A DNA stretch of 64,000 nt from Elusimicrobiota bacterium (GTDB lineage: Bacteria > Elusimicrobiota > Elusimicrobia > FEN-1173): NCBI GenBank assembly GCA_016788905.1, contig JAEURZ010000003.1, forward strand, positions 39,262 through 103,261. Reading direction: 5' to 3'. The position numbers and the translations under genes were made by a program. This document shows positions 1 through 32,036 of the stretch, piece after piece. Each line of letters opens with the position of its first letter. Position 1 is the first letter of the stretch. The notes below the pieces were generated by a model. The model had not been told where the DNA came from. It saw only the letters and a list, made by a program, of their open reading frames with translations, and made no database searches.

Positions 1-10
1 CGAGGCCCTC

Positions 11-2812: not shown

Positions 2813-2824
2813 ATCACGGGGGGG

Positions 2825-3778
2825 GTGGGATTCGGTCGTGGGCCGATCGTGGTGAACTACGCTTACGGTCCCAATGAGAATTTGGGAGCGGTCCATCGAA
2901 TGGATGTGGGGTTTCGGTTTGGAAAACCCCTCGGCCGTGAAGTCCAGCGTCGAGCTCTCCTGGAAACGGCCCAATCGGCCTGGGAGAAGGGACAAACGGC
3001 CCATGCGGCGGATCTGTTGGAGGAGATCAATGAATTTTCACCCCACTATTACCCTGCCGAAGTCTTGGGCAAAGAGGTCAATCGGCGAATCGAAGAGAGC
3101 CTCAAACCAGACACCTTGTATAATTTGGGTCTTCGAGCTTATGAGGAAAAAGATTTTGAAGCGGCGGGAGACTATTTAAGAAAACTGGTCATGCTCGATC
3201 CGTCCTACCCGGAGGCGAGCATCCTATTGAAAAAAGCCGAGTCCACGTTGTCCAAGGGAAGAGAGTCCCGGGCGCGGGAAGAATTGGCCCATGGTCTTGA
3301 ACGGCAAAGGAGAGCGCTGTCCCGGACGGCCCAGAAAGCTCAGGAACGGGGACGTTGGTCAGAGGCGCTGAAGAGTTGGCGATATATTTTAGTGCGGTTT
3401 CCGAAAGATGCGGAAGCTTTGGCAAAGGTGATCCAGTGCCGGAGGGAAATGGTGGCCTTGGCGAAATCGGCGGAAAAAGAGGGAGCCATAGAGATGGCGG
3501 TATTCCACTATCGTGCCCTTCAAGAGGACCGGTTCGACCCTGCCGTGTCCCAGCGAATTGAAAAACTGACGCGGGAAGCGACACGGAAAGCCGAAACACG
3601 GGCCCGAGAGCTGTATCAAGAGGGGGTCCGTGTCTATGACGCCGGCGACCTTAAGAAAGCTTTACCCCTCTTTGAGGAATCGGTTCGGTTGAATCCCAAC
3701 GATGAAGCCGCCGCCCGTGCCCGGGACCGGGTTCGAACAGAGACCAAGCGTGGGACCGAAGAGAGGAAAGCCCGATGA
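2825..3778 (+). CDS. TPR-repeat protein; first ~30 aa look like terminal beta-strands of the upstream OMP (possibly one gene interrupted by an in-frame TGA)
   Basis: GTG start immediately after a G8 tract. 'IVVNYAYGPNENLGAVHRMDVGFRF' has an alternating beta-strand pattern ending in F. The remainder is helical and TPR-like ('YNLGLRAYEEKDFEAAGDYLRKLVMLDPSYPEA', 'LYQEGVRVYDAGDLKKALPLFEESVRLNPND'). Same frame as 1904..2812. Confidence 0.5.
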   Translation: MGFGRGPIVVNYAYGPNENLGAVHRMDVGFRFGKPLGREVQRRALLETAQSAWEKGQTAHAADLLEEINEFSPHYYPAEVLGKEVNRRIEESLKPDTLYNLGLRAYEEKDFEAAGDYLRKLVMLDPSYPEASILLKKAESTLSKGRESRAREELAHGLERQRRALSRTAQKAQERGRWSEALKSWRYILVRFPKDAEALAKVIQCRREMVALAKSAEKEGAIEMAVFHYRALQEDRFDPAVSQRIEKLTREATRKAETRARELYQEGVRVYDAGDLKKALPLFEESVRLNPNDEAAARARDRVRTETKRGTEERKAR

Positions 3779-12690: not shown

Positions 12691-12838
12691 GGTGTTCCGA
12701 TAGATTCCCAGAAGAGCCATCGATCACAGTTTTTGGCGTTTTAGCCGATAAGTTATAAAATCCCTCTTGAAGGGGATGGCCCACGGGGAGACGTGTGCCC
12801 TTAAAATCTTTAGCGGAGAGCGACGAAGGGAGAAACCA

Positions 12839-15800: not shown

Positions 15801-16276
15801 CGGAAATGTTGCAGCCGGAATTGCAGGATCTGGGCGTTTTTGTCCAAGGGGTGAACGCCATTGTCGAGGCTCAGCAGCGTGTGGCGGAAGACTATTTTTC
15901 TGACGGCAGCGTAGCCCTGGCCTGCCCGCCGTTGAAGGCACTCTTACATATAATGGCGAAGGGAAGCTTTGAAGGGAAAGGGCCCTCTCATCCGGACGTT
16001 CGAGCCCTTTTTGACCGTAAAAATCTGCTCAAGAGCGACTGGTATCAGGCCCGTCTTTCCGCTCAACAGAAAAAAGACATCGCTCTCTGGCAGCGCCACG
16101 TGAAGCATATGGAGGCGTCGCTCAAATCCTTTCCTCCCGAAGAGTATCCTCTGATGGGCATTGACGATCGATGGGCTCACGCTAAAAAGATGTTGGCCGA
16201 AGTCAAAAGTCCCGCTTATCGGGAGTCCCTCGTGGGGTGCCTTGGCGTCGATCCAGCTTCTCTTTCTTCCAAATAG
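12839..16276 (+). CDS. large (1145 aa) soluble protein of unknown function. Its size would fit a PPi-dependent PEP carboxykinase-like family, but this is unverified
   Basis: Long uninterrupted ORF with RBS-like 'agggagaaacc' before the ATG at 12839. No TM segments and no motifs I recognise. The PPi-PEPCK suggestion rests on size only. Confidence 0.6.
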   Translation: MNPKDTNEEARIIQYINLKLAARGQATYGGVSGDLLEVAWPLLQNHQEKSRLLAGHLCPPDRRIQDFLDAYLHEPEGLEPVSLPHLTFTLDRPGLARTLSLPPDQDEFSSSIIHTYRVKQGILHNPKSDRRTTAGVFHVAEGGFAVPWDKKAVPKVAFRNLFAAAVQPPEDNKILPFTSSQKEKVRVWVSLLLRPLVCPAVPGLRPEKRTEVRFFAPGSLISNLDFLERIFGNAGDPSLPANDAALDIDGWTGHTGCVILAPHLITLKKKDLGLPTRDQATERQKRDGMCWDHPDDLYNDGQAFKITARDERGVMVTLIADNYFGYCKKEVKTQISYSANLYGWAEEEHAGGAIAFSSYDLGVRFAQEVRALPQNGFTFADIAKNYGDLMEVQPEGYGVDRRFPDVLYVPEDAVFDMTSKTVSWEWDGVKRSLQLIARNVYILPNGYKVFLSHSVGGQGWHLRGTSAEGTVCHKPSTVSGGGKSEISKSIEDAMVQGPVFVADFPKDMDRVEAIIRRSYEDRFKDRQLVKNPSRPILGVDRSLGSVIKLLTPAASYSNEFNEWLRSIPSYIKDLVFIVKRFYHSDWGTDWRSHFSVDMVNGTSGHELKLDGRRLRATYLRVGFERDGSRRICRVRQDFSPTEKVQTEDDITASVVVPRESIVGLRAGEIHPSVKIVTNCERRLFQRPDEAIHPGYDKQAEADLSGNEVFLSNWEPMGPAEARTLVDDALSFELFTAPVRDLFHRFLADGKPAYIVSSARPRIVDGKPSKNPRYLQERPDLMNPRLVHVSEMGTRLYRKIPMGKPVPWVVDAVLPARRNNPPENTKKGIGAPPLCVYNPIHFEELPELFMDFVCSLTGKSPSTTGFGSEGALTKGPFNALPPVIDLNNAMVSYILTGYQGFTTAAGHVGPHIQVDHDISLLVPEIWARLSAEELDPAFLIREGYLEPVSDFVHEGKTVLASRLGYRITDKFVRGFLGRIFNNPTIVFTPEMLQPELQDLGVFVQGVNAIVEAQQRVAEDYFSDGSVALACPPLKALLHIMAKGSFEGKGPSHPDVRALFDRKNLLKSDWYQARLSAQQKKDIALWQRHVKHMEASLKSFPPEEYPLMGIDDRWAHAKKMLAEVKSPAYRESLVGCLGVDPASLSSK

Positions 16277-16389: not shown

Positions 16390-19300
16390 ATGTTGATCCT
16401 TCCCGGTCAATTCAAAAGGGTGACGGTTGCCATTCTTTCCGTTTCCCTGTTTTTTTCTCAATGTCTTTTTGCCTACCAATCTGAAAATGGATTTTGGGAA
16501 GACCGGCGGAGAGCCACCCAGCGGCAATCTCCAACCCAATTGGCCTCCCGGTCCATGGGATCTCCTTCCCTGGGAGGGGGCGCATTGGCCCCTGTTCCGA
16601 TCCTCAATTCTTCTCTTTCCTCTAACGTTTCGAAATCACTTCCGAAAAGTTTTTTAAAAGACCACGCCAACCTTTTGGCGGTGCTGTCTCCCGCATTTGG
16701 AAATATCCGAAAAGTATCTCTCGGGCACCCCTCTCCCTTTTCCGGCCCCGTGGTCATTCATATTCAAGACGTTCATATGAATCAAGAGGCCCAGTGGAAT
16801 ATCCGCGAAACGGTTCGATCGTTAATTCAGTCGGGCCAGGTGGGCTTGGTGGCTTTGGAAGGAGCCACAGAGGAACTGAACCTCCAACCTTTTGTGGATT
16901 TTCCCTATCGAAGAGCCGTTAAGTCAACGGCGGATTACCTCCTCAAGCAGAACAAAATCACCGGCCCCATTCACGCGGCTTTCACCGCAACGGGAAAACT
17001 GCCTCTCCTACGCGGAATTGATGATCCTGCCCACTATCAAGCCAACGTCCAGGCCTACAAAGATTCCGCTCCGCGGTTGCTGAAAATGCGCGAAGAAGTC
17101 CACGTTTTATCGATTCAGATCGAAGCTGAGAAAGGAGTTGTTTTTTCTCCCACCTTACGTGCGTTTGACCAGAAAGTCCGAGCTTACAGGGCAGAAAAAA
17201 TGGCCCTGGGGGACTATGTTCGGACCCTCATGGAAGTGGGGGGCGATTCTCCTGTCCCAATCGCCCTCCGCCATTTTGGCGAGGCGTTGGAAATGGAACG
17301 CACACTCAACTTCTCTCAGGTGGAGCTTGAGCGGGCCAAGGTAATCGAAGGACTAACGCAAAAACTGGATCCTCAAGAAACCAAAACGATGATGGCCCTA
17401 AGCCTGGCTTATCGGGCCGGGCAACTCAACTACGCCGAATTTTATACGCAATTGAGGGAAACGTGCCGGGCGAAGGGGCTCTCCTTGTCGAATTATCCTG
17501 CCCTGGATGCCTACGTTCGCTATGTGCTTCTGGCTGAGGGAATCGATGCTGAACAGTTATTGGAAGAGATCTCGATCCAGGAAAAACGTGCCTATGATCG
17601 ATTGGCGGCAACGTCGGAAGAAAAAGATTTGATCGCCCGGTCCCGTGAACTCTGGTTAACCGAAAAGTTGTTGGATTTTTCCCTGACACCAGCGGAATGG
17701 AAAGAATACGATACCACCGTTTCCAGGCCGGGGCGGGAGAATCTGCTTTCGTTCGAGTCGTTCTATCGGGAAGCCCATGCCCGTGACGGCGCCATGGCGG
17801 ATAATCTCCTGAACGCTGTGGGGCAAATGCCCCAGGGGAAAAGGGTCTCCATCTTGGTTACCGGTGGATATCACGCGGAAGGGATTGCCAAAAAATTAAC
17901 AGAAAGTGGAACCACGGTCATTTCCTACGTTCCGAAAATCGAAAAAATTGACACGACCCAGGGATCGGCCTACCTCAGTGTTTTCAGTCAAGAGAAATCC
18001 CCATTGGAAAAGCTGTTTTCTGGGAATAAATTATTCTTAGGCATCAACCCTGCGGCGGGTGTGCCGTCAGCGGCTGTGTTGTCTTCGTCTTTAGCCCAGT
18101 TGGAAGGAATTGCTTCGGAGGACCTGGAAAAAATATCTGGCTATGTAAATGAATTTCACCCGGGCATGAAATTATCACTTAAAGATCCTCATCAAATGCC
18201 GGACAGTGGATGGATGGCTGAGGTCCATGTTCAGGTCGGGGACGAAGAAAAGAGTTTTACGCTCATAACAGATCACGAATTCCGTATTAAATCATTCAAC
18301 TTAACCGAAAATGAGGAACGCCCGCCTTTCGCTTGGCTTACGGAAGTTCTCATCCCTGTTCATCACTTTCTCCAGGGCCACGCGGTCAACTTATGGCTCC
18401 GTGAAGGGAAATCCCCTGAGAGTTTTCAATCTTCATTCTTGGCTGCCCGTGAAACTTCCCTTTCTCGTTTAGTTAAGCAAACCTTGGCGGCGCGCAAATT
18501 ACTCCGATCACAAATAAATGCTAACGGAAGGGCGACCGGCTGGATGGGGGTGGGGATTTCTTGGGGGATCGGAGCGGGGGTGGGATTCGTTCGAAAGTGG
18601 TGGGGGAAAACTGAAAAAGGGGAAACCCCTTTCTCCTACGCAAGGCATTTTGTTTCCTGGAATCGGGGATTAAACGCGTCTCGTTCGGAAGATGGGGTGA
18701 ACGCCTTGGTGTCTGTTTCGGCGGGAGGGTTGGCGGGGCAGACGTGGATGGGTATGGCGTTGGACCCTTCTTTTCTTTTTGTGTGTATTTGGTTTTTGTT
18801 GTTTGTGGCGTCGCACTATGAGAAAAGAACAGGCGAAGGGAAAAAATCCTCGCTTGAAAAGCTAACCGGGCAGGCCCCCAGTTTCAGCAAAGCCATACAA
18901 TTGTTCGGGTTTTATCTTCTTCCCCTTTCGTCCTCGGTGTACATGGGGGCGTCTTCGGTGCCCCTGGGCTGGATTCTTTTGGTGGTCTTCCTCTATTTTC
19001 TTCTCATTCGGCGGGTGCATGATCAGATCAATAAAGAAAATGGGGTTCATTTAGGGGCATGGGGAACCTATTCCAATTTCCTTTTCCCAGCGTCAGCGGC
19101 CTACTGGTATGCGCGGTGGAGCGGGAAGGACGCCCAGGAGGCCCATGGGATCGGTCGGAAATGGATCTTTCTGGAAGGGGTCCCGTTGATTGGTTTGATA
19201 CTGATGGGTGGCTTATCTTCAGGTTTGGGAGAAGAAAGCGTGCTCTGGTTCGGTATCGATCCCGTTTTGGGGTCTTTGGCTCTTTTAGGGCACTTTGGGA

Positions 19301-21858
19301 TTGCCTGGGGTCGATTCGCAATGATGGCCCGGGTGGAAACGATGCAAGGGGAATCCCCACCGGCGGTGGGGGCCGTGACGCGTTACCTTATTTTGTTTGG
19401 ATTGTTCTTGGTCCCCGGAGGTCTCTTCATTGGGTTGTTCGTTAACTTGGTCGTGGCTCTTTTGCAATGGGACGCGGATGGGCGCGTTCCTTCTACTAAA
19501 ACACCCTGGTCTCCGGAAATCACACGAAAAGGGTATCAGATCCACTTGGTCGACTCGGATCAGTTGGAGGGATCACAGGATAAATGGCTTTCGGTCCGGG
19601 CGGTCATCACGCGAATTGGCCCTGACGGTGAGATCCAGTACCTGTTGGTGAAAAACCCTAGTGATCGATGGGAGTTTCCGGGCGGGGGAGGGGCTGAGGG
19701 GGAGTCTCCCACAGAGGCATTGAAAAGAGAACTGAAAGAAGAATTGGGGGAGCCGTTTGCACAGGATGTGGTCCAATTTCTTACCGAAACAAATGAAAAT
19801 AAAAAAAATAAACCGTTAATTACTCATGATTTAATGAAACCCAATAAAAATAAAGAATATAGATCAGTTTATCTTGAAATTTTCCCCCTAAATAAAAAGA
19901 AACACTCTTCTGTCCATATTAATGATGAGTCTTTGAGTAGTCGTTGGTTGAGTTACGAGAGAATGAAAATTGAACTCCCTTCGTTGACATTGGCGACGCG
20001 GATGTCGTTTCTCCCCGAAGTTTTTTTGCGCGAGTTTGGGATTGAAGGAGTGGTGTCCATGTCGCCTTTATTTGGCGACCCAGGAGCGCTATTGGTTGAA
20101 ACAAAAACAAAGAACTATGTGTTTCGCAAAGCGGGGAAAGATGCGTCAGAAGCCGCTTTTAATTCGGCGGTTCAAGCACATCTTTTTAAGAACGGAATTC
20201 TGGTGAGAGAATTAATTAAACGGCAGGGTTCGGAAGAGAGTGAAGAGAAATTTATTTTAAGGTTAGGAAATGTTCCGTTTGTTTTGGAACGTTACGGGGA
20301 TGAGGGCGAACCCATTAAAAAATCCGACGCTGAGGAAAAACACTATATTGCGTTAGGAGCATTGGCCGCTCAAGTTCAAAAGGCTTTAAAAAGTTTCCCA
20401 AAGAATTTGAGTCCAGATCGAAGACTCCCACGGTTTGAGGAAATGGTGAATCCAACGGTGGTGCTGGGTCTCAGCTTCTGGAATGTGGGTTTTTCGATTA
20501 ACGAGGATGGTTCTGTTTCTGTTTCGCGAATTCGTGTATTCGACCGTCCCCATTGGGGAGATCGGCTTGAAGAAATAGTGAATCTAGCGTTTGAAGTTGA
20601 AGCCCCCGGTTTACTTCAAGAACTTGTTACTGCGTATGCTTATCAAATTAATCCGGAACTGACCGATTCGGAGGTCCGTTCTTTAAATGGACCGAATCAG
20701 AAAGCGAACATGAGAGTAGCGTTTAGTGGGTATATGGCCGCAAAAAGGTTGGCTGATGAAAGGATTAATAACGCAAAAAAAATGTCGCCTTCTTCTCTTT
20801 CTTGGTTTTGGATGAATTTTCCATCCCACGTAAGCATTTTAGATGACCTCCTACGGAAAGCGCCCTGGGAATCGGTGTTTTTGGTTGTGGGAATGGGTGG
20901 CGCTGTCATGGCCAATTTGTTGCTGGGAGCTTCGATTTTTTGGGTTTTGGCGGCGTCCCTATTGGCCGGGGTGTTGGGGTATTCTCATACCTGGGGAACT
21001 TATGGGTTTGTGGATGGAAAAATGAAACGGGTTGTGGGAGCCCTGTCTGGGAACAAAGCCGTTTCCTGGTGGCTCTGGACATCAATCTTTGGGGCTCTCT
21101 TGTTGGGGGTGGGGCCGATGGTTCCGGCCGAAGCGCTTGGGTGGGTTCTGGGTGGCGGTACTTGGGCGGCGGCTTGGGTTGGGGTCGTTGTTCACCGGCG
21201 GGGGAACCGGGAATGGCTGGTGGATCATTTGGACAACGGGAACTTGACCCCGGCTCAGAAAAATATCGCCCGGGATATTTTAAAGAATTTGGAACAGCGA
21301 CCCATCCGGCTCGGGGTGGAGGAGTTTCGGGCCATGGTCATGCAAACGGCGGAAACCTATTCCCGTGGACAGGGAAGTCTTGCCATCGATGTTCATGCCC
21401 CAGCGGCGTCGCTTGGCCAGGGGATAAAGCTGTATTTTGTGGATCCTGTGGCGGTTCGTTCTTCCGAGAATGTGGAAAAATTGACATGGATGATGAAAGC
21501 GGACAAGAATCTTTATGTGGTTGCGGGCAATTCAATCGATGGTTTGCCCAGTGATCGTGTCCTTGTGGTGGAGGGGGCTTTCCAATCGGTGGGGGGGAAA
21601 GACAACCCTCTCTTTGATGTGTCTTTGAAAGAAGTCCGAGTTCCGATCCTTGATCGATTTAAAAATCCGTCGTTCCGAATTCTCCAAACACCGCTGATCC
21701 AGTTGAATGGTGACAACTTGGTACCAGAGGATCCACTCCTTGTTGCGTCTAAGAATGCTCTGATTTTCATCCTGGAATCCATGCGGGCGTTCCCGTCCAC
21801 CGCGTTTCACTGGGGTGATGTATTGCACGTTTATCGGGCTTTGGCGGAATCGGCTTAA
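16390..21858 (+). CDS. giant multi-domain membrane protein 1 (1822 aa): signal peptide, TIKI/TraB-like N-domain, polytopic TM region, Nudix hydrolase box, C-terminal TM + soluble domains
   Basis: Signal-like 'VTVAILSVSLFFSQCLFA'. N-domain motifs 'VVIHIQDVHMN' and 'ARDGAMADNLL...VTGGYHAEGI'. Nudix box 'GGGGAEGESPTEALKRELKEELGE'. Multiple hydrophobic helices. N-terminal 550 aa is paralogous to the downstream giant gene. Confidence 0.75.
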   Translation: MLILPGQFKRVTVAILSVSLFFSQCLFAYQSENGFWEDRRRATQRQSPTQLASRSMGSPSLGGGALAPVPILNSSLSSNVSKSLPKSFLKDHANLLAVLSPAFGNIRKVSLGHPSPFSGPVVIHIQDVHMNQEAQWNIRETVRSLIQSGQVGLVALEGATEELNLQPFVDFPYRRAVKSTADYLLKQNKITGPIHAAFTATGKLPLLRGIDDPAHYQANVQAYKDSAPRLLKMREEVHVLSIQIEAEKGVVFSPTLRAFDQKVRAYRAEKMALGDYVRTLMEVGGDSPVPIALRHFGEALEMERTLNFSQVELERAKVIEGLTQKLDPQETKTMMALSLAYRAGQLNYAEFYTQLRETCRAKGLSLSNYPALDAYVRYVLLAEGIDAEQLLEEISIQEKRAYDRLAATSEEKDLIARSRELWLTEKLLDFSLTPAEWKEYDTTVSRPGRENLLSFESFYREAHARDGAMADNLLNAVGQMPQGKRVSILVTGGYHAEGIAKKLTESGTTVISYVPKIEKIDTTQGSAYLSVFSQEKSPLEKLFSGNKLFLGINPAAGVPSAAVLSSSLAQLEGIASEDLEKISGYVNEFHPGMKLSLKDPHQMPDSGWMAEVHVQVGDEEKSFTLITDHEFRIKSFNLTENEERPPFAWLTEVLIPVHHFLQGHAVNLWLREGKSPESFQSSFLAARETSLSRLVKQTLAARKLLRSQINANGRATGWMGVGISWGIGAGVGFVRKWWGKTEKGETPFSYARHFVSWNRGLNASRSEDGVNALVSVSAGGLAGQTWMGMALDPSFLFVCIWFLLFVASHYEKRTGEGKKSSLEKLTGQAPSFSKAIQLFGFYLLPLSSSVYMGASSVPLGWILLVVFLYFLLIRRVHDQINKENGVHLGAWGTYSNFLFPASAAYWYARWSGKDAQEAHGIGRKWIFLEGVPLIGLILMGGLSSGLGEESVLWFGIDPVLGSLALLGHFGIAWGRFAMMARVETMQGESPPAVGAVTRYLILFGLFLVPGGLFIGLFVNLVVALLQWDADGRVPSTKTPWSPEITRKGYQIHLVDSDQLEGSQDKWLSVRAVITRIGPDGEIQYLLVKNPSDRWEFPGGGGAEGESPTEALKRELKEELGEPFAQDVVQFLTETNENKKNKPLITHDLMKPNKNKEYRSVYLEIFPLNKKKHSSVHINDESLSSRWLSYERMKIELPSLTLATRMSFLPEVFLREFGIEGVVSMSPLFGDPGALLVETKTKNYVFRKAGKDASEAAFNSAVQAHLFKNGILVRELIKRQGSEESEEKFILRLGNVPFVLERYGDEGEPIKKSDAEEKHYIALGALAAQVQKALKSFPKNLSPDRRLPRFEEMVNPTVVLGLSFWNVGFSINEDGSVSVSRIRVFDRPHWGDRLEEIVNLAFEVEAPGLLQELVTAYAYQINPELTDSEVRSLNGPNQKANMRVAFSGYMAAKRLADERINNAKKMSPSSLSWFWMNFPSHVSILDDLLRKAPWESVFLVVGMGGAVMANLLLGASIFWVLAASLLAGVLGYSHTWGTYGFVDGKMKRVVGALSGNKAVSWWLWTSIFGALLLGVGPMVPAEALGWVLGGGTWAAAWVGVVVHRRGNREWLVDHLDNGNLTPAQKNIARDILKNLEQRPIRLGVEEFRAMVMQTAETYSRGQGSLAIDVHAPAASLGQGIKLYFVDPVAVRSSENVEKLTWMMKADKNLYVVAGNSIDGLPSDRVLVVEGAFQSVGGKDNPLFDVSLKEVRVPILDRFKNPSFRILQTPLIQLNGDNLVPEDPLLVASKNALIFILESMRAFPSTAFHWGDVLHVYRALAESA

Positions 21859-21887: not shown

Positions 21888-24800
21888 ATGGAAAAAATGA
21901 CTTTTCTGCCAAAATTAAATCCGATATTGCGTCATTTGAGTGTGATCCTTTATGTGTGCACTCAAGTGGTATTTACGCATGCCGCTGAATCCGGATTTTG
22001 GGAGGAACGTCGCAAAAGCCGATCTCTCATTGGCTCAACGTATGCGGCGCTTCCAACGTCCTCCCTCCCTGGGATGGAACGAGTGACTAAAAATCTCGGT
22101 ACGTTGTCGGCCTCTCTCCATTCTTCCATTTCAAACCTCGGTGGCCATGCCCCTTTATCTCACGTCATTCGAGCCATTCCCCACGAATTAGGAAGCATTC
22201 GGAATATTTACCCACCCCAATCTCCCGAAAACCCAATCGTTGTCCTTCTTCAGGACGTCCATTGGAATATCGACGCCCAAAGGAATTTGAGCCGTTTGAT
22301 TCAAGAATTATCTTCTTTCCAATGGAAGGATGGAAAAAGCACAGAAATGGTTCTGGCTCTGGAAGGGGCATTTGGCGCCATCGATATCTCCGCCTTTAGG
22401 AACTACGGTCACCCGACGATTTTGAGGCGAGTCGCTGATCGGTTACTATTGGATCGCCGCATTGCTGGGCCGCTCCATGGACTTCTATCGGGGGAAAAAA
22501 TTCCCGCCCGCATTGTGGGCGTGGATGATCGGCGTCATTACCAGTCCAACGTCATGGCTTACCGCACCGCCATTCCGCATCAAAAAAGCCTCCGCAATCA
22601 ACTTTTCCAAAAACGAAGAGAGTTCGTTAAGCGTCAGAATACCGTTTTCAGCAAAGGCCTCAAATCCTTTGATTATGAGGCACGGTCCTACCACGAGGGG
22701 AAAAAGAGCTTAAGCCATTATTCCCGTATTCTGGCGAGCACGTATTCGGGAAATAAACAAACGTTCGCGCGAGAGAACCCCACCCTGTCCATTTTCCTTC
22801 AAGCGGTGGAGATGGAATCTTCTCTTGATTTCAATCGGGTTGAACGAGAACGCGGGCAATGGCTCAATCAATTGACCCATTTTTTATCAGCGGAAGGAAG
22901 AAATTCCTTAATTGAAGCTGGCATCTCTTATCGATTGGGACAGATTAGTTTGTCGGATTTTTATCAACACCTCATTGCGGTGGGTGGCACGAGGGCCCCT
23001 TTGGCAAATTTCCCAGCGATGGCGGCCTATACCAATTACGTGCTTTTAGGGGAACGGGTGGACCCAGGGAAACTTTTCGAAGAAGTCACCCGGTTGGAAA
23101 CGGCTCTCTATGACCGGTTGGCGGAAAGCCAAGAGGCAAAAGCCTTGGTCAAGGACACTCGAGAGCTTGATCTTTCGCTCCGGTTGGTTGATTTCGCCCT
23201 CACTCCCCCAGAGTGGGAGGCTTATAAGCGTTGGGTGCCTGAAAATTCCAATTTGGAAATTTTTGAGCGGTTTTATAGGGAAGCAGAAGCGCGCGATGGG
23301 ACCATGGCGGGGGCCCTTCAGTCCAGTTTGATTTTGTCTAAAGGGAACAAGGGTCCACTCGGTCCCCGCCCAACGCCTGCGTTGGGGATTTTGGTGGCCG
23401 GGGGCTTTCACGGGGAGGGAATAACGAAACGATTGGTGAACGCAGGGATCGGGGTGATCACGGTGGTCCCCCGAATTAAAACGTTGGATGACAAACCGGG
23501 GCTGGCCTTGTCTGTCTTTACCCAAGATCGGACCCCGCTTGAAAAACTCGTGTCTGGGGAAAAATTGTTCCTTTCAGAACCGGTGTTTGATCCCTCACGC
23601 CAAGCGTTGACCGCACTGGCCTGCGCCGCCACGGGGGCGGCGGATGGTCTCGCCATACCCCCCGGTGAAATCTCCAATCTATTACCTACCCCATTGGCCG
23701 ATCTTCCCACCCAAGTTCAGACACCATCCCCCCATACGGGTGTGGTCTCGATCCAAGCGAGAGGTGGCGAAGTCACCGTTACTTCAACACTTGAAAATCA
23801 AGGAGGACAGATCCTCTCCCTCACTGAATCCCAGGCGGGAAGAGGATTGCCCCAACCCGAACCCCTTCGCGGGTATTCCTGGGAACAATTGGTTGCGGCG
23901 ATGAGGCCCTTTATCGCCAGCGGGGGAAAAGACGAATCCTTTTATCGGGGGGTCGTATGGGATTTGATATTAGACCCTCGCCGGACCAAAAGACTGGGTC
24001 CGTTGCTCTCACGCCAAGCGGTGGACCCGGCACAGGCCATATCGGAATCCATCGACAACGGCCAAGATGGTGTTCTTCGACGGTTTGAACCGGATGTTCG
24101 GCCCGTCGGGCGACGCGGGGTGGGAGGGATTCAGATATTCAATGATCTCAAATCCAGCGCTGATCGCGTTGTCATTACTTCTTCCCGTGACGGGCTCAAT
24201 GGCGTTGAATTTACTTTCTGGAAAGAGGGCGGTGAAATTCGATTTACATATAAAATTCTTTATGTCTCCGAATGGGGAGACGAAAATATTAATGCTCTTT
24301 TGCCAGCCCTGTCAAAAGATATCGCCACGGAATTGGTTTTTCGCCTTCCTCAGGGGACGAAAATCGACGTTCGCTGCGCTCTTTCGGCCGAAGAAACGGG
24401 CCGCCGTCTATCCTTTGTGAGAAAAAAACTGCGCTTGAATACCCGTTCGCCTATCGACGTTAATGGGACGAATGTCGATCAAACAGGCGAATACAAACAC
24501 GGGGGCCTCACGCGTCCGGTATCGGCCACGGAATTGCCTCCCGTTCACGTCACCATCAACCCAAACGGATACTCGGTTACAGATGAGGGCATTGGCATGG
24601 GTTTGAAAGAGATGTTTGAGGACTATCTCTTCCCCTACAAGACAACCAAATCGATGACCACTCCCCATGGAGAAGTTGATTATTATTACAAACCGGGCTC
24701 CGGTCGGGAGACAACGATCGCATCGTTCATCCCATCGAGAGAAATTGAATCTCTCTCGCCCTCTCCGGAAGGGACTCCCCTCAACGTCATTCCGGAACTG

Positions 24801-27800
24801 TGCTTGGTCTTTCCCGATGGTGCCAACCTGACGGAAGATCGAGGGACCATTGACTTAGTGCCATCCGATCAACGCGTCACTTCCGAAATCGCGGGGATGA
24901 AGCGTTTGATTGACCGATGGACGAATCCAAGGCTTTCCATCGAAGAACGGTTTGCCCTACTGAACACTTTGGCCGTATTCTTAAGGGCAAAACAACCTCG
25001 GGCCGAGAAAGGGTTGACGAGGGACAATCTTCAAACCTGCACAGATCTCTTGTGGTATCTAAGCAAGAAAATCCTCCCTTTGTTAAAACAGGACAGGGAA
25101 CAAGGAAAGACGTTCCTTCCCAACACCGAGGAATGGCTTTCTTTTGAGGGGAAAAGCGGCGTCATTCTTTTGGATACAGATATTTTTGAACCGAACGCGG
25201 CGGATTTCATCGCTGCAGGGATGTCCGATGTAACGGAAAACCCACTGTGGGCTCCATTGGATAAGCGGATACGTCATTTTTATCTGGCGGATTTGAGCGC
25301 GGCCCCTGCGGTGATTCTCGTGGGCAGTGGGGAAACAGTTATTGTTGATCGGACTGTCTTTGAGCGAGAAAGTTCTGACCCGGAAATCCTGTTGGAGAGA
25401 ATTCGAAAAAGTATTGATACGGCCTGGGGAAAATCCAGCCAAACGTTAACAAAACAATCCCCTTCCAAAAAGTCTTGGGTTCAGAGGCATTCCCTCCGTA
25501 TCGCCTCCTTTTTTTTGGCCCTGCTGGTCGCCGCTTCGCTCTGGATGACCTGGACTGTTGATGGAAAATTTGAGAATGAACCGGTTGAATTCGTCCCCCA
25601 TCAGATGACTCTAACTCCTGGTGCGATCGGATGGTCAGCCCCCAGTTGGGTCGATTCGGAATGGTGGAGTTCGTTTTTCTCATTAGACAAGGAACTTAAA
25701 CCGCGCAAACCCTATGGACGGATCATCGGTTTAGTGGATTCTCCTTATCTGGTTAAAGGGTTTTACCCGCATCTTACTGGCGACGGTTCATTCAAATCAG
25801 CGGGCGACCTGACCTCCCGGATGGAGGGACCTTCTAAGTCAAAAATAAGCCTTATGGTCGCCGTAACAAAGGAAAGAAACGAATCCATCCCTTTGCTTGT
25901 TCCTTACCACGGACAAGTGGACGCCAAGAGCGTTAGAATCCATATCCCTGGAAGACCTGCGGAGGCCTTACCACTCGCATACGAATCGGGACAACCGGTG
26001 GTTCATCCTCTAACGAGAGGATCTTTTTCCCTCTCATGGGACGTTTGGGTGGCTGAGAAGCAATATTTTAGTTACCGAAACCTACCTCTACCACCCAAAG
26101 AAATCGAGAATTTCCCCTCCGAATGGGCAGCGGTCCTTGATCCTTTGCAATCCGCGCACGACGAAAAAAAACTTTCGGCCATTAAACATCTGATGGGACG
26201 CTATTTCGCCTACGATGCCGGTAAAACCTATGGATTTGATGGCACCAGTTGGGCCAGCACCGCTAAACCCTATTTGGAAAGAGGAGAACGAATTCCAATT
26301 GTCTGCAACACATCAACGTTATATTTTTATCTGATGGCGCGTTATGTGGGCCTTCCCGCCATATATGTCGAATTAGAAAATTCAGGAAGTGAGAATATCC
26401 TATACCGGGATCTGTCCGGCCACGCGCAGGTCGTCGTAAAAGTGGGATACGAATGGGTCGTGCTTGAAACGACCAATGTAATGCCTCTTGTCCAAAGAGC
26501 GTTTCCCTTAAAACCGAGTTCACTATGGGGAGATATTCAATCCCAAACTAAAAATTTAAATTTAATACTAATCGGTTTTTCTGGTTTTTTATTTTTTATG
26601 GCTCTATGGAAGGGGGGACCTCAATCAAAGGAATATTTTTCAAGGAATTATTTTAACCGGTTGAGATATTTTTTAAAAAACAGAGTTCATTTAAAGGGAT
26701 TCGATATACAGGTCTCCCCATGGGGAATGATCAAAAAAACCAGAACCACAAATCCTTTTGGAAATCCTTCGATTGAAACAGAAACTCATCTGGGTGTTCT
26801 TTATCAAACCAAAGGATCAACGTTTACCCCGTTGAAATATGAGCATGGCAAATCCGACTACTTTCTGTCTCTTAAAGGGGAATTCGAAGGCGTCATAATC
26901 AAATTAATATTTCTCTTGGTGTTCAGCGTCATCTTTGGATCAATTGGATGGGATATTTTGTCATCTTCATCGAATCTGACGACCCCGATCCTAATGGGAA
27001 TATCCATATGGATGTTGATCACCTTTTTGGTTTTGCATCGACTTCCTGTGTTAATTCGCCTCAATGAGAATGGATTAAAACTTGTTTCTGTTCCCTATCC
27101 AAAACGATTCGTTCCTGAGGTTTTAGAGGTTAAAGACGGCGCCTATTTGGATTTTGGGGGAGGTGATTTCTATTGGCTGGGACTTGAATCGGGTCACCTT
27201 AAGAAAATTGTTATTCCTGGACTTCGGGAAATTAAACCTGTTTCTAAACCCGGAGGGAAAGCCGCTTTAGTGGCATTGGTTAAAGATCAAAAAAATGGAT
27301 CCAGATTTATTGTATACGAACCCCAGGGGACTCATTTAAGGGAAGTATGGAGTATTCCCTCTCCCCCAAGCCTTGCCCCTCTGTATGATTGGAAATCATT
27401 ATACTTGTTCCCATCGAACCAATACGTCATTGCCTACCAAACCATCAATTCGGATATGACGGAATTCATTACTCTTGGCCAACCCATTCCGCCTATTCCG
27501 TCACAAATTCCGTTGAGGCATCTTTATCCATTTCAGAACAGTTTTATTAGTGAAGTGGGGAAAATCCCGATTTTTCCTGGGGATAGTCATCCGGAAATTA
27601 CACCTCGTCTGGATGGGAGACCGTATTACATCTTTTCAGACGATATTGTTGGGTTCCCAACAGGTGAGCGGGATGACGAGTCCAAATATTTAACTTTGTT
27701 CAATATTTGGTCGGGTGACCGGTTGGGGGAAATACCCATTCAAGGAATGGACAGCATCTATAACCCTATCGTTTTAATTGATAATACTGTTTTCAGATTA

Positions 27801-30800
27801 TCTCGCGCGACTGACGAAAAGGGATCCCCTAAACCCCAACTGCAAATCATCGATTCAACGGGGTATCGGTCCATTGACCTCGCCCCATGGGCAGGGCTTT
27901 CCAAAACTATTTCCGAGGTTTGTGCCAGAGTGACAGGGCATCCTCGAGATCTGTTTATCACCTTCGATGCTAGGCACAGCCAGATCTCCAAATACACGAG
28001 TGGTGAATATATAAATTCCGGCCTTCCCTTCTATTTCGGGTTCGACCGCCAAGACGGACTGACAATATTTGGAACGGAATTAAATCGTGTGTTTACCAAA
28101 TCTCCCTTGAAACCCCCGGAATTGAAAGAATTAAAGAAAAAATTGGATGGACCTGCCTTGGAATCCCTCGAGAACCGAATGTCGTATATGACAGAATGGC
28201 ATCCCCACGAATTGTTCATTCCCTGGGTGGATTCCACCATCCCACCGGATGTTAAAGATCGGTTGGATGGGGTGGCTCGCGAAAATCTAGAACGGCAGGA
28301 TTGGGTGCGGGAGGTTTGCCGCGCCCTATACGTTTTGAATCGAGACCCGGCTGGACAGGCAGGGCCAATTCTCAGACGTTACATGGACTTATTGGAGATG
28401 GATCCCGAATTGGAAGAAACCCTTCGCGAAAAACTCTTTACCCCTCAAACAATGCCTGGGGTTGACTATCCTATGGAGCCCATCGTTTTTTTATGGCGGT
28501 CGCCCAGCGAACAACCCCCTCTCCCTTTAGAGGTGGAATTTTTCCTGTCCCTGTTGTCGAAAGAATTCGAGGATATTTTGAAGTGGGAAACCGAAAGAGC
28601 CCCCACCTTCCCGACCGACATTGTCATAAACCCTTTAAGTGACGACCGTTCTTTGTCCCGGTTTTTGGGGGCCGCCCGAAAGACCTCAACAGAAGAGTTG
28701 GATGGCCCTGATGGGTTCTCAAAACTTAAGGACACCTACGATGAGTTAAGCCCCCAGGACCATGCCGCCCCATCTGAAATCGTGGGGCCAGCCAACAATC
28801 AGGGGCTGGCCGAACCGTTGTGGCTGCGGGAACTGGTACAAAACGCTCGGGATGCGGTAAGAGAAGCCCGCCGAACCGGGGCTTTATTACAAGATCCGGC
28901 CATACGAATGGGAAGTTATTTGAACCGAGAAGGAGAGCGTCCTCGTCTGGTCGTTAGCGTTAAAGACGGGTTAGGAATGTTTTTAAGCCGTTTGGTCAAA
29001 AAGGTGTTGGACCCGGACGAAACGACAAAGACCTTAGCGGACGATCTGCTGGAACAACTGAGAAAGGGAACGGACACCACCACCCGCACGCAAGGGGTTA
29101 TCGACACGCTCGTGCAACCGGAAAAACGTGACGATGCGGCCCTCCGCCAGGCGATCCAGGAGCAGATTGAGGGCAATGAAATTAATGAAGCGTTGGCGCG
29201 GAGAATGGCGGATGCGTTTTCGTTGGACATGACTCCCACCAGCTCGGGGTTTATTGGGATTGGTTTCTTTACAGCTTTTCAGGCCGATGAAGTCATGGTG
29301 CGAACGGGGCGCGGTGGCTCTCTTCATGAAATTAAATTGCGGACCGTGAGGGCGTCTGACGATAGGCGGATTGTGGACATTCAGCTCTTGTGGGCTCGAA
29401 AAATCTCGGATCCCCAGGGAAAGTATCAAGGAACGGATGTTCAATTGGGGTTCGATCTCCCACGAGAGGATGACCCCACCTTTGATCGTGAAGTGATTCG
29501 GGCCCGAATACGCAACGCCCATTTTCATTGGATGGCCATGAATTACCTCAGTGGGGTATCGGATGTGGACATCTATTGGAACGGCGTCAACCTACGGGAG
29601 TCCACCTCCCCAGGAGCGACTGTTGGGGAAATGGCCTCGGTTTTAGGATCCCGTCATCCCGGCCGCCTTTTGGTGGATGAACTCCGCATCCAAGAGCTCC
29701 CGAAAGCTCTCGTGTCCTTGGTCCCGACTTGGGTCCAACGGGTGTTGACCGAGGAAGGTGTTAACATTAAGTACCCCCGCACCCGGTCCTTCGTTCGAAC
29801 ACGACGCGCCATCCAATCCCCGGAAAACGATGCGCGTCCCATGGCCCTCTTGGCCCTGCGCACGGTCTATGTTCATTGGCGCAACGGAGGAGTGGTGGAC
29901 GGGTTGCCGCCTTATGAGGAGTATCGCCTCCAATCACCGTGGAACAGTTATCCGGCGGATGAAAACGTTCGGAGGGATGCGGCGTTCCTCTTGCAGACGA
30001 ACGGGAGCAAGGACGGTCAGGAGGAGTTTTGGGGCCGGTTTGAAAAGGAGTATCTATCGGCTCGGGGACGTTGGGTCCAACTTATGCTGGAAGTGGCTGA
30101 TGATCGAGACGCCTTCTATCGTCAAGCTCTGCCCCACGAGTTTTCAACCGCATTGGATGCCGCCCGGGAAAAGGGTGTATTGCTCGGTCTTTCCCCTGCC
30201 CGGGCGCCTCCCGCTTCCTCCGACGATTTGAGTCGGCGCGTTCTTCGTCCTCACCTGGCACGCTGGGCACGGCTCTTTCTCGAAGGACGGGTGAATATCG
30301 AAGGTCGTTCGGTGAGAGAATGGGCCGGTGTAACACCATCTGGAGAGGACTGGACTCAATCCCTATGGCAAGTTGTTCCCGAAGGGGCCACCCTTCCTCT
30401 TTCTCAGATCGTGGCGACCATGGACCCAACCGCGACCCCTGTTTTGGCTGAGGACACAACACAAATGGAATTATCGATTCGGGCCCTCTCAGAGGCAGGG
30501 AGCGTTTTTGCGGCGCGGTTGCCCCTTCCTCCCACCCACATGATGATCGACGAACGCCTCTTGTGGGCCTTAAAACTTTTTTTACTCAAAAATGAACTGT
30601 CTCCTCTATTGGACGCATTTTTGATGACGCTCGGGCGGCATAAGAATGGGTCAGCCGTCTCCTTTTACGAGCAATGCTTGCGTGAAGGGTTGGATAAAGC
30701 CGACCTGAAACGAAGGTTGGTGTCCCTGGGTAATATTTCCGACATCGACGCGTCCATTGATCACCAGATCCAACTCTTACGCGAAAACCCGACCCATCAG

Positions 30801-32036
30801 CTGGATACCTTACTGAAACCCAATGTTTCGTCCTCCTCCACGGTCCTTCCTGGGATGATTCCTGCGTTTACCCGGGCGCTTCTTTACCGGTTTGTGAAAT
30901 GGTTTGGCGCAAAGCGGGGAACATCCTTCTATGTGAAATGGGGATCGGCTTTTTCCGAGGGTGTCACTGTCCTAGGACTTCCTTTGCTCTTGATGGAGAT
31001 CGGGGGAGGGGTATTTAATCCCCTCTCTGCGCCAATGATTTTTTGGCTGATGTACGCCTCTGGAAAATTATTGTTCGTGCGGGCCCACCCCCAGGGGAAC
31101 AGCTTATTTTACGGGATGGCTTTTGCGCCAGTGGGAGTGGCGTTCTTTGTTGTGATGTTTCTGGGCTTATCGGTTCCCGGGATCCTTCTTATCGTCGCGT
31201 CGGAAGTGGTTCCCCATGTTCGCAACAACACCGCCTATTGGCATAGGTTAAGTCCAGGAGAACGATTGGCTTTGGAGGTTTCCGCCGCTCAGGACGCCCT
31301 TGCCCGTGGGGTCCGTGTTCGTGATGCGGATGAGCTCAGAGAGGAAACCTTTCAATTGTTGCTGGGTGCGGATTCCCTTGGCCAGCGTTGGACCCATCAC
31401 CTGCGCGTGGAGGACATCTCTTTGGAACAATCCCGTTTTAAAGAGAAGTATGGGCAGGTCCAACGGGAGGTCTTTTCTCCCCAAATGCCGCGTTCTTTGA
31501 GGGAAACCGTGTTGGAACAATTATTTCGAAAAATGGGACCGGCTCAACGTTTTGAATCCATGTGGGGGGAAGAAGATTCGTCCACGAATGCTGTTTTGAT
31601 TTTGTTGGACGAATTCCGAACCAACCAATTGGAGGAAATTGTTACTAAGGCTATTCAGGTCTCTCTCCAGCAGAAAAAACAATTGCTTTGGGTCGCTGAA
31701 AATAGGCCCCTCAAACTCCGGGCCGAGGCTCTTCTTCGAGATCGGGGGATTTTCGTTCAAATCCCACTCTTGAACGATGGAACCGATTTTGTTCGTGTGG
31801 GACGATTGGGGAGAGTCAACGACGGAGCCCTTGAACAACTCACCCAGCCCCAACGGAAAGATAAAGTGATCAGACAACTCTCCATCTGTTTGGGGGAAGA
31901 ATGGACGATCCAAAAAACAACCCAGGAATCCTTGTTCCAAAACGCGAATATCTTTTTCTTCGATCGCTGGCTTTCTGTTCATAAACTACTGGAAGAAGGA
32001 CAGCGCCTCGCCCACTTCATTGCTCAAATGGCGTAG
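21888..32036 (+). CDS. giant multi-domain membrane protein 2 (3382 aa): signal peptide, TIKI/TraB-like N-domain, transglutaminase-like Cys-protease core, TM segments, Hsp90/sacsin-type GHKL ATPase, C-terminal polytopic region
   Basis: Signal-like 'LSVILYVCTQVVFTHA'. N-domain 'IVVLLQDVHWN', 'ARDGTMAGAL...VAGGFHGEGI'. TGase-like 'VCNTSTLYFYLMARYVGLPAIYV...GHAQVVVKVGYEWVVLETTN'. GHKL boxes 'RELVQNARDA', 'VKDGLGM', 'SSGFIGIGFFTAFQADEVMV'. Many TM helices. Confidence 0.75.
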   Translation: MEKMTFLPKLNPILRHLSVILYVCTQVVFTHAAESGFWEERRKSRSLIGSTYAALPTSSLPGMERVTKNLGTLSASLHSSISNLGGHAPLSHVIRAIPHELGSIRNIYPPQSPENPIVVLLQDVHWNIDAQRNLSRLIQELSSFQWKDGKSTEMVLALEGAFGAIDISAFRNYGHPTILRRVADRLLLDRRIAGPLHGLLSGEKIPARIVGVDDRRHYQSNVMAYRTAIPHQKSLRNQLFQKRREFVKRQNTVFSKGLKSFDYEARSYHEGKKSLSHYSRILASTYSGNKQTFARENPTLSIFLQAVEMESSLDFNRVERERGQWLNQLTHFLSAEGRNSLIEAGISYRLGQISLSDFYQHLIAVGGTRAPLANFPAMAAYTNYVLLGERVDPGKLFEEVTRLETALYDRLAESQEAKALVKDTRELDLSLRLVDFALTPPEWEAYKRWVPENSNLEIFERFYREAEARDGTMAGALQSSLILSKGNKGPLGPRPTPALGILVAGGFHGEGITKRLVNAGIGVITVVPRIKTLDDKPGLALSVFTQDRTPLEKLVSGEKLFLSEPVFDPSRQALTALACAATGAADGLAIPPGEISNLLPTPLADLPTQVQTPSPHTGVVSIQARGGEVTVTSTLENQGGQILSLTESQAGRGLPQPEPLRGYSWEQLVAAMRPFIASGGKDESFYRGVVWDLILDPRRTKRLGPLLSRQAVDPAQAISESIDNGQDGVLRRFEPDVRPVGRRGVGGIQIFNDLKSSADRVVITSSRDGLNGVEFTFWKEGGEIRFTYKILYVSEWGDENINALLPALSKDIATELVFRLPQGTKIDVRCALSAEETGRRLSFVRKKLRLNTRSPIDVNGTNVDQTGEYKHGGLTRPVSATELPPVHVTINPNGYSVTDEGIGMGLKEMFEDYLFPYKTTKSMTTPHGEVDYYYKPGSGRETTIASFIPSREIESLSPSPEGTPLNVIPELCLVFPDGANLTEDRGTIDLVPSDQRVTSEIAGMKRLIDRWTNPRLSIEERFALLNTLAVFLRAKQPRAEKGLTRDNLQTCTDLLWYLSKKILPLLKQDREQGKTFLPNTEEWLSFEGKSGVILLDTDIFEPNAADFIAAGMSDVTENPLWAPLDKRIRHFYLADLSAAPAVILVGSGETVIVDRTVFERESSDPEILLERIRKSIDTAWGKSSQTLTKQSPSKKSWVQRHSLRIASFFLALLVAASLWMTWTVDGKFENEPVEFVPHQMTLTPGAIGWSAPSWVDSEWWSSFFSLDKELKPRKPYGRIIGLVDSPYLVKGFYPHLTGDGSFKSAGDLTSRMEGPSKSKISLMVAVTKERNESIPLLVPYHGQVDAKSVRIHIPGRPAEALPLAYESGQPVVHPLTRGSFSLSWDVWVAEKQYFSYRNLPLPPKEIENFPSEWAAVLDPLQSAHDEKKLSAIKHLMGRYFAYDAGKTYGFDGTSWASTAKPYLERGERIPIVCNTSTLYFYLMARYVGLPAIYVELENSGSENILYRDLSGHAQVVVKVGYEWVVLETTNVMPLVQRAFPLKPSSLWGDIQSQTKNLNLILIGFSGFLFFMALWKGGPQSKEYFSRNYFNRLRYFLKNRVHLKGFDIQVSPWGMIKKTRTTNPFGNPSIETETHLGVLYQTKGSTFTPLKYEHGKSDYFLSLKGEFEGVIIKLIFLLVFSVIFGSIGWDILSSSSNLTTPILMGISIWMLITFLVLHRLPVLIRLNENGLKLVSVPYPKRFVPEVLEVKDGAYLDFGGGDFYWLGLESGHLKKIVIPGLREIKPVSKPGGKAALVALVKDQKNGSRFIVYEPQGTHLREVWSIPSPPSLAPLYDWKSLYLFPSNQYVIAYQTINSDMTEFITLGQPIPPIPSQIPLRHLYPFQNSFISEVGKIPIFPGDSHPEITPRLDGRPYYIFSDDIVGFPTGERDDESKYLTLFNIWSGDRLGEIPIQGMDSIYNPIVLIDNTVFRLSRATDEKGSPKPQLQIIDSTGYRSIDLAPWAGLSKTISEVCARVTGHPRDLFITFDARHSQISKYTSGEYINSGLPFYFGFDRQDGLTIFGTELNRVFTKSPLKPPELKELKKKLDGPALESLENRMSYMTEWHPHELFIPWVDSTIPPDVKDRLDGVARENLERQDWVREVCRALYVLNRDPAGQAGPILRRYMDLLEMDPELEETLREKLFTPQTMPGVDYPMEPIVFLWRSPSEQPPLPLEVEFFLSLLSKEFEDILKWETERAPTFPTDIVINPLSDDRSLSRFLGAARKTSTEELDGPDGFSKLKDTYDELSPQDHAAPSEIVGPANNQGLAEPLWLRELVQNARDAVREARRTGALLQDPAIRMGSYLNREGERPRLVVSVKDGLGMFLSRLVKKVLDPDETTKTLADDLLEQLRKGTDTTTRTQGVIDTLVQPEKRDDAALRQAIQEQIEGNEINEALARRMADAFSLDMTPTSSGFIGIGFFTAFQADEVMVRTGRGGSLHEIKLRTVRASDDRRIVDIQLLWARKISDPQGKYQGTDVQLGFDLPREDDPTFDREVIRARIRNAHFHWMAMNYLSGVSDVDIYWNGVNLRESTSPGATVGEMASVLGSRHPGRLLVDELRIQELPKALVSLVPTWVQRVLTEEGVNIKYPRTRSFVRTRRAIQSPENDARPMALLALRTVYVHWRNGGVVDGLPPYEEYRLQSPWNSYPADENVRRDAAFLLQTNGSKDGQEEFWGRFEKEYLSARGRWVQLMLEVADDRDAFYRQALPHEFSTALDAAREKGVLLGLSPARAPPASSDDLSRRVLRPHLARWARLFLEGRVNIEGRSVREWAGVTPSGEDWTQSLWQVVPEGATLPLSQIVATMDPTATPVLAEDTTQMELSIRALSEAGSVFAARLPLPPTHMMIDERLLWALKLFLLKNELSPLLDAFLMTLGRHKNGSAVSFYEQCLREGLDKADLKRRLVSLGNISDIDASIDHQIQLLRENPTHQLDTLLKPNVSSSSTVLPGMIPAFTRALLYRFVKWFGAKRGTSFYVKWGSAFSEGVTVLGLPLLLMEIGGGVFNPLSAPMIFWLMYASGKLLFVRAHPQGNSLFYGMAFAPVGVAFFVVMFLGLSVPGILLIVASEVVPHVRNNTAYWHRLSPGERLALEVSAAQDALARGVRVRDADELREETFQLLLGADSLGQRWTHHLRVEDISLEQSRFKEKYGQVQREVFSPQMPRSLRETVLEQLFRKMGPAQRFESMWGEEDSSTNAVLILLDEFRTNQLEEIVTKAIQVSLQQKKQLLWVAENRPLKLRAEALLRDRGIFVQIPLLNDGTDFVRVGRLGRVNDGALEQLTQPQRKDKVIRQLSICLGEEWTIQKTTQESLFQNANIFFFDRWLSVHKLLEEGQRLAHFIAQMA

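Follow-up and report, generated by a model that had tools for sequence, protein, structure and literature searches.

Two giant genes stand side by side in a window of 64,000 nucleotides (nt) from the genome of an Elusimicrobiota bacterium (GenBank assembly GCA_016788905.1, contig JAEURZ010000003.1, positions 39,262 to 103,261 of the forward strand). Their open reading frames, ORF A and ORF B, begin alike and end unlike, and the question that this locus raises is what the shared N-terminal part (the head) is and what it does at the front of two such different proteins. The reading that we favor, with moderate confidence, is that of a single membrane-tethered domain of ~460 residues from the TIKI/ChaN/Ere/TraB superfamily, a His/Glu hydrolase, which forms the constant part of a family of Elusimicrobiota giant proteins. 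Below, positions are those of the window and, unless stated otherwise, residue numbers are those of ORF A. The features are collected in Table 1.

The two frames are co-directional and separated by 29 nt, and a spacer of 113 nt with one weak promoter-like site lies 5' of ORF A. A full-length BLASTP comparison of the two proteins gave one significant alignment, of residues 16-550 of ORF A with residues 17-562 of ORF B (36% identity, 54% positives, E = 6e-85). Beyond it nothing was found at E < 0.4, and the tails do not align. The claim of the first-pass annotation that the first ~550 amino acids (aa) of both proteins align is thereby borne out. The peptides that it quoted (VVIHIQDVHMN and IVVLLQDVHWN; GPIHAAF...IDDPAHYQANVQAYK and GPLHGLL...VDDRRHYQSNVMAYR; EAHARDGAMADNLL...VTGGYHAEGI and EAEARDGTMAGAL...VAGGFHGEGI) are present as written, and the segment that it delimited, aa 1-557 of each protein, takes in the entire domain together with the N-terminal helix and a linker. 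In ORF A, the N-terminal helix and the TIKI-like head are followed by a small alpha+beta domain, at least four strong hydrophobic helices, a NUDIX domain (aa 1073-1192), more hydrophobic helices and a C-terminal region. In ORF B, the same type of head is followed by an unrelated tail that contains about 6-9 hydrophobic helices. The family profile found no third copy of the head in the window. Among public records, MBL8023031.1 ('NUDIX domain-containing protein', from an Elusimicrobia metagenome-assembled genome, MAG) is identical to ORF A, and MBL8023032.1 ('hypothetical protein', 3369 aa, also from an Elusimicrobia MAG) shares a 90%-identity cluster with ORF B.

The fold of the head is best seen in two independent AlphaFold2 (AF2) models of ORF A. 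The model of aa 92-552 has a predicted local distance difference test score (pLDDT) of 84.2 and a predicted template modeling score (pTM) of 0.75. The second, which covers aa 1-690 and was made with a deeper alignment, has a pLDDT of 83.5 and a pTM of 0.81, and its residues 75-515 are mostly above 90. When these models were compared with 48,164 chains, members of the TIKI superfamily occupied seven of the top eight and all of the top seven places, and they aligned over 143-190 residues versus about 100-130 for other chains. The values of the fold-level comparison were 10.0 for Bcr136 (2qgm), 9.8 for Bcr135 (2rad), 9.6 for ChaN (2g5g), 9.1 for both EreC (6xcq) and a TraB-family protein (8bqs_DQ), 8.7 for HopBA1 (5t09) and 8.1 for RRSP (5w6l). 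The TIKI fold is an alpha/beta core in which a central parallel beta-sheet is flanked by helices (PMC6254334), and the head has such a core. An all-helical insertion of ~235 residues, probably a lid or a substrate-binding subdomain, is placed between the fourth core strand and the helix that carries the conserved Arg.

The putative active site conforms to this fold. Five positions, D127, H129, E157, R465 and H495, show zero substitutions in an alignment of 164 heads with 36-56% pairwise identity, and in the AF2 models each His and Glu directly follows a core strand, the Arg being located in the preceding helix. The corresponding set of EreC, a metal-independent hydrolase that uses a His-activated water, is E47, H50, E78, R261 and H289 (PMC7979712), and that of RRSP, also metal-independent, is E3900, H3902, E3930, R4001 and H4030 (PMC6254334). 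D127 and H129 are matched by E47 and H50 of EreC and by E3900 and H3902 of RRSP, R465 by R261 and R4001, and H495 by H289 and H4030. The His-Glu and Arg-His spacings are 28 and 30 residues in the head, 28 and 28 in EreC, and 28 and 29 in RRSP (PMC7979712, PMC6254334); the His-Glu spacing of YbaP is 26. In ORF B, the equivalent residues are D123-x-H125, E159, R469 and H508, the His-Glu spacing being 34 because of a loop insertion. The head has the features that characterize the superfamily: the acid+His motif at the end of the first core strand (GxxH in TraB/TIKI), the Glu past the next strand, the Arg of an R-[DN]-x-x-[MW] helix and the second G-x-x-H. Superfamily members typically have His-Glu spacings of about 26-28 and Arg-His spacings of about 24-29 residues.

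Sequence profiles gave a mixed picture. PF04187 (Cofac_haem_bdg/ChaN, Tiki superfamily; 213 model positions, Pfam gathering cut-off of 27.7 bits) is the only Pfam family that matches the head. It matched 13 of 19 and 10 of 24 family relatives in two sets, and one relative, P0006, which is 54% identical to the ORF A head, scored 32.0 bits, above the curated cut-off. With the helical insert deleted, PF04187 was the sole family at E <= 0.001, in seven of nine constructs (best score 25.5 bits), and the match covered model positions of about 125-204 only, always the half with R-D-x-x-M ... G-G-x-H. This RDxxM ... GxxH block is exactly the one from which the first-pass annotation had derived a resemblance to the TIKI/TraB/PrgY/GumN superfamily, and in fold, in the order of the motifs and in their spacing the resemblance holds. 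The Pfam checks that it had proposed gave a divided answer: ChaN (PF04187) was found in P0006 and, below cut-off, in ORF A, and PF01963 (TraB/PrgY/GumN) had no match in any Pfam scan. Assignment to the ChaN family proper was rejected, the ORF A score being below the gathering cut-off and the N-terminal half of the model unmatched. Assignment to the TraB/PrgY/GumN family proper was rejected on the missing Pfam match and on a profile-profile comparison with YbaP that was not significant. Because the latter test was negative, the nearest branches are ChaN/Ere and not TraB/PrgY. By fold and active site, the head belongs to the TIKI/ChaN/Ere/TraB group at the superfamily level, and not to the ChaN or TraB families proper.

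A number of results weigh against our reading. The ORF A head matches PF04187 with 21.3 bits (E = 3e-4, model positions 60-204 only), which is below the cut-off, the ORF B head has no Pfam match, and in neither ORF A nor ORF B does this part have a significant sequence match to any curated family. The hhalign comparison of the head profiles with the E. coli YbaP/TraB family profile gave a probability of ~3% and aligned only 'LEGA' with 'ELEGA'. Hidden Markov model searches of PDB sequences with the full and the insert-deleted head returned chance matches only and no TIKI protein. A Foldseek search of the PDB found nothing at E < 0.04, the best TIKI match having E = 0.06, though the highest probabilities were those of EreC, HopBA1 and ChaN. 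The first motif is a variant, Q-D-V-H and not G-x-x-H or G-E-x-x-H, in which Asp replaces Glu and the Gly is absent. The N-terminal segment resembles a Sec signal or anchor, which would place the head outside the cytoplasm and not inside, as argued below, and our topology calls were made with crude hydropathy and not with a trained predictor. Furthermore, AF2 docks the junction motif, the stretch that closes the head, nowhere, and the hydrolase activity, its substrate and any cleavage are predictions from sequences and models.

Could the resemblance to TIKI proteins then be convergent or generic, the head being an unrelated Rossmann-like alpha/beta domain in which the order of His, Glu and Arg arose by chance? 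The profile searches with no significant match would fit such a domain. We nevertheless consider it very improbable. The TIKI chains take the top places with both models and with longer alignments, PF04187 is the only family that emerges from the insert-deleted heads and exceeds its cut-off in P0006, and five residues agree with those of EreC and RRSP in identity, order, structural position and spacing (PMC7979712, PMC6254334).

If the head works like EreC, His129, oriented by Asp127, would be the general base, Glu157 and His495 would position the attacking water, and Arg465 would stabilize the oxyanion. By this analogy, the head most likely hydrolyzes a peptide or an ester bond through a His-activated water, for which a metal would not necessarily be needed. 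The first-pass annotation had labeled the domain a putative metalloprotease with a metal-binding His/Glu set. This label is not supported, as EreC and RRSP are metal-independent with the same residue set (PMC7979712, PMC6254334). It had also named the loss of the GxxH or Glu residues in homologs as grounds for giving up the superfamily assignment; these residues and the Arg turned out to be invariant in about 160 homologs. The same invariance bears on another possibility, namely that the head, without being catalytic, binds a ligand or acts as a sensor, like the heme-binding ChaN, and signals to the variable tails in the manner of a receptor. A pure binding domain would not need the five EreC/RRSP catalytic residues, and PMT, an inactive TIKI-fold domain, has lost its 2His/2Glu set (PMC6254334). 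A receptor-like role is hence quite unlikely in our view.

The N-terminal helix would tether each giant protein to the membrane, with the head following it. In the AF2 model of ORF A, this region consists of two helices (residues 6-26 and 28-44). The N-termini of 136 homologs have an n-region with 2.6 Lys/Arg (K/R) and 0.2 Asp/Glu, then a hydrophobic core of ~19 aa and then an invariant ExxFWxERR. A lipoprotein signal was considered and rejected, since the Cys toward the end of the hydrophobic segment is not conserved throughout and the residues that precede it are unlike a lipobox. To judge from crude hydropathy, the side of the inner membrane on which the head lies is quite probably the cytoplasmic one, for three reasons. 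First, in members in which the head is followed by 1,000-2,000 residues that lack hydrophobic helices, this stretch carries PPDK-like, GH77, inositol-monophosphatase, S-adenosylmethionine (SAM)-methyltransferase and PIG-L domains, which are ATP-, phosphoenolpyruvate (PEP)- or SAM-dependent or typically cytoplasmic enzymes. Second, of the two flanks of the first hydrophobic helix, the one toward the head is richer in K/R in 84 proteins versus 19 (p = 1e-9). Third, four strong hydrophobic helices separate the ORF A head from its NUDIX domain.

The first-pass annotation had described the head as duplicated on two different giant tails. The different tails are real, but the pair is not a local duplication: the head is the invariant part of a phylum-wide family. 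In an exhaustive profile search, 9,277 clusters of 50% identity had E <= 1e-3, and 5,930 had E <= 1e-30. The 150 best proteins are 550-6142 aa long, and their head is located at residues ~90-560. When every GTDB species was represented by one genome, a scan gave 78 loci, all 78 in Elusimicrobia/Elusimicrobiota MAGs and up to 8 in a single MAG; its patterns came from a 7-sequence alignment of close relatives, which biases the taxonomic result to closer relatives, so that the restriction to the phylum is a lower-bound statement. Wherever the source of a cluster member gives the phylum, it is Elusimicrobia; the unclassified 'bacterium F11' is the exception. At least two head genes, in tandem or divergent, are present in 14 of the 78 loci.

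In contrast to the heads, which are mutually detectable in all 18,906 ordered pairs, the tails are so in 482 (2.5%), and for the ORF B tail no relative was detected among the 137 other tails of the family. Besides many hydrophobic helices, the tails contain NUDIX, GT4 (including GT4-conflict), inositol monophosphatase, ARMT1-like, PPDK-like, His-phosphatase, GH77, PIG-L, SAM-methyltransferase, epimerase, S8 protease, HD, metallophosphoesterase and HEAT domains. The boundary between the constant and the variable part is the junction motif, with the consensus GSAYLSVF(S/T)QEK(S/T)PLEKLFxGxKLFL, which belongs to the most conserved stretches of the family and is predicted to be disordered in both AF2 models. 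Family-wide conservation falls sharply past aa 550, where the motif ends. In pairs of proteins with 62-69% N-terminal identity and unlike tails, similarity is lost 15-35 residues past it. P0030 and P0047, for instance, share 69% identity over aa 1-571 and are unrelated from there on, their junction motifs ending at aa 553 and 550, respectively. Judged by these comparisons, the tails of the family are either exchanged or diverged beyond recognition.

This arrangement recalls the polymorphic toxins CdiA, Rhs and MafB (PMC3482391), which also have a conserved N-terminal part, a short conserved junction, unrelated tails, tandem paralogs and breakpoints past the motif. The giant proteins could accordingly be exported polymorphic effectors or toxins, with the N-terminal signal and the head forming a trafficking and processing module, the junction marking where cassettes are exchanged, as VENN does in CdiA and DPxGL in Rhs, and the tails acting in other cells. 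The Sec-like N-terminus, the replacement of tails right after the motif at which conservation stops, and the tandem paralogs would all fit, as would the NUDIX, GT4-conflict, HD, S8 protease and metallophosphoesterase domains in the tails. TIKI-fold domains are moreover found in large toxins, RRSP/MARTX, PMT and HopBA1 (PMC6254334), and Elusimicrobiota are reportedly enriched in huge proteins and possibly host-associated (PMC11573180). C-terminal modules that differ past a conserved junction are present here (2.5% similarity for the tails versus 100% for the heads), but the adjacent immunity gene and the link to secretion that go with polymorphic toxins are not: none of the 78 loci has a conserved immunity-like, secretion or chaperone gene, and neither an immunity gene nor a secretion link was found beside ORF A and ORF B. 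No neighboring gene family is conserved at these loci, the most frequent one occurring in 9 of 78, and none is placed where an immunity gene would be. The strongly hydrophobic tail helices (Kyte-Doolittle values up to 2.6) would be expected to insert into the membrane of the producer, and the charge bias is what the positive-inside rule predicts for a protein that resides in the membrane and has its head in the cytoplasm. Unlike those of CdiA, Rhs and MafB, the tails are long and rich in membrane helices, with domains that are mostly of metabolic enzyme type and not known toxin domains, and the constant part is enzyme-like and not a filament, a repeat or a known trafficking domain. The head also has no PADLOC match and no relatives in viral contigs. 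Taken with this evidence, export as an effector is about as improbable as the receptor-like role.

Let us return to the membrane-tethered hydrolase. The paralogy of the heads, their fold class, the conservation of the five residues, the size of the family and the polymorphism of its tails are shown by the comparisons above, and catalysis, substrate, self-processing and topology are inferred. Constant in all members while the tails vary, the head should do a job common to all of them. A candidate for this job is maturation of the giant protein, in which the head would cut or gate its own polypeptide or that of its paralogs at or near the junction motif. We favor this candidate because the head is N-terminal in every case and because the junction, which coincides with a module boundary, is invariant in spite of being unstructured. 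Nevertheless, self-processing at the junction is speculative and, in our estimate, unlikely. The fuller picture, of phylum-wide polymorphic giant membrane proteins in which a self-cutting head of the Ere/RRSP type releases or activates interchangeable enzymatic tails, is a shade less likely still. If it were true, it would represent a bacterial polyprotein or effector-cassette system of a previously undescribed kind.

The head differs from each of its structural relatives. The Ere enzymes (EreC; Bcr135/Bcr136; 6xcq, 2rad, 2qgm) are soluble, single-domain proteins of about 400 aa with a Glu-x-x-His motif, whereas the head has Asp-x-His, is membrane-tethered on proteins of 1,000-6,000 aa and has a larger and different insert; no significant sequence match connects the two (Erythro_esteras, E = 0.07 with one insert-deleted construct). 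ChaN (PF04187; 2g5g) is a 255-aa periplasmic/outer-membrane lipoprotein known for heme binding and not for catalysis, and it has neither the insert nor the junction motif nor giant tails. In the MARTX toxins (RRSP, 5w6l; the PMT C1-C2 structure 2ebf was also compared), the TIKI domain is a variable effector delivered to the host, whereas in the head proteins it is the N-terminal module that stays constant and the remainder that varies; the RTX repeats and cysteine protease domain of MARTX are absent from them. Animal TIKI1/2 is a metal-dependent Wnt protease of the cell surface, whereas for the head neither a need for metal nor an extracytoplasmic site is supported. From TraB/PrgY/GumN (PF01963) the head is set apart by the YbaP-family profile comparison described above.

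Neither Pfam nor NCBIfam nor PADLOC has a model for the head, and in scans with the latter two only the NUDIX region of ORF A was recognized. Neither the large insert of helices nor the Asp-x-His form of the first motif is described in these databases or in the literature searched, and the same applies to the junction motif and to the role as a constant head in thousands of polymorphic giant membrane proteins of a single phylum. Elusimicrobiota have repeatedly been noted to be rich in huge proteins, none of which has an assigned function or COG (PMC11573180; bioRxiv 10.1101/2023.11.21.568195). The head provides a handle on thousands of them in the form of a probably catalytic module, with five residues to address, with which at least 5,900 distinct protein clusters begin. 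To the TIKI superfamily it adds a bacterial branch that is new and very large and whose insertion and context are new as well. The architecture raises the question of whether the head is a maturation protease or a catalytic step shared by all these proteins.

Table 1. Features of ORF A and ORF B in the window.
Feature	Residues	Position	Strand	Remarks
ORF A	1-1822	16390..21858	+	1822 aa, genuine open reading frame
ORF A N-terminal hydrophobic helix, running into the conserved LFAYxxExxFWxERR motif	6-44	16405..16521	+	membrane anchor or signal-like segment
ORF A head domain, TIKI/ChaN/Ere-type alpha/beta fold	92-550	16663..18039	+	family profile, 676 bits
First motif (QDVH), codons of D127-V128-H129	127-129	16768..16776	+	C-terminal end of strand 121-127; D and H in 158/158 non-gap of 164
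LEGA motif, codon of E157	157	16858..16860	+	right after strand 151-156, 28 residues past H129; 162/162 non-gap
All-helical insertion	213-449	17026..17736	+	weak PAH-like signals
EAxxRDxxM motif (R465-D-G-A-M469), codon of R465	465	17782..17784	+	in helix 450-478; 160/160 non-gap
TGGYH motif (G492-G493-Y-H495), codon of H495	495	17872..17874	+	right after strand 486-492, 30 residues past R465; 158/158 non-gap
ORF A junction motif, GSAYLSVFSQEKSPLEKLFSGNKLFL	525-550	17962..18039	+	conservation map, pLDDT about 40
ORF B	1-3382	21888..32036	+	3382 aa, genuine open reading frame
ORF B head domain	91-563	22158..23576	+	family profile, 545 bits
ORF B junction motif, GLALSVFTQDRTPLEKLVSGEKLFL	538-562	23499..23573	+	

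Several minor observations concern the tails of the two proteins. Directly after the junction motif of ORF A, aa 551-636 (18040-18300) are confidently predicted (pLDDT 87-92) to form a small domain of two helices and a four-stranded sheet, with which only about 7-8 of 137 other family tails align. The NUDIX domain of ORF A (19606-19965, E = 5.6e-11) is located between blocks of hydrophobic helices, and its NUDIX box also matches the PADLOC candidate-defense model PDC-S07 (E = 5.7e-9). In the ORF B tail, two GHKL/Bergerat-like sets of ATP-binding motifs can be read by eye at 23790-25490 and 28380-30180 (aa ~635-1200 and ~2165-2765; E-x-x-x-N-x-x-D followed by D-x-G-x-G-M, e.g. 'LRELVQNARDA ... 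VKDGLGMF'). They found no support in Pfam or in a phmmer search of the PDB and are given no weight. Residues 1472-1527 of ORF B (26301-26468), between two hydrophobic helices, show a weak transglutaminase-like core (PF01841, E = 0.034, below cut-off). The G+C content is 0.43 in the stretch 26001-28000 inside ORF B versus 0.50-0.58 elsewhere, and this stretch could be a recently acquired tail segment.

Other observations concern the wider family and the neighborhood of the two genes. At two loci (L041 and L078), head genes are broken up into fragments of 264-480 aa whose frames adjoin or overlap and which may be pseudogenes or assembly frameshifts among paralogs. A head-only member of 553 aa (P0014; locus L080, 3878-6662) stops 17 residues past the junction motif and adjoins a transposase gene (HTH_38 + rve); its contig ends 458 nt later, and the tail may be split. 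Directly 5' of ORF A, a 1169-aa open reading frame (12767-16276, + strand) has no Pfam match and reads by eye like a pyrophosphate-dependent PEP carboxykinase, which is probably unrelated to the head finding. A homologous reading frame of this type is also present upstream of the giant gene in locus L001, whose head is 62% identical.

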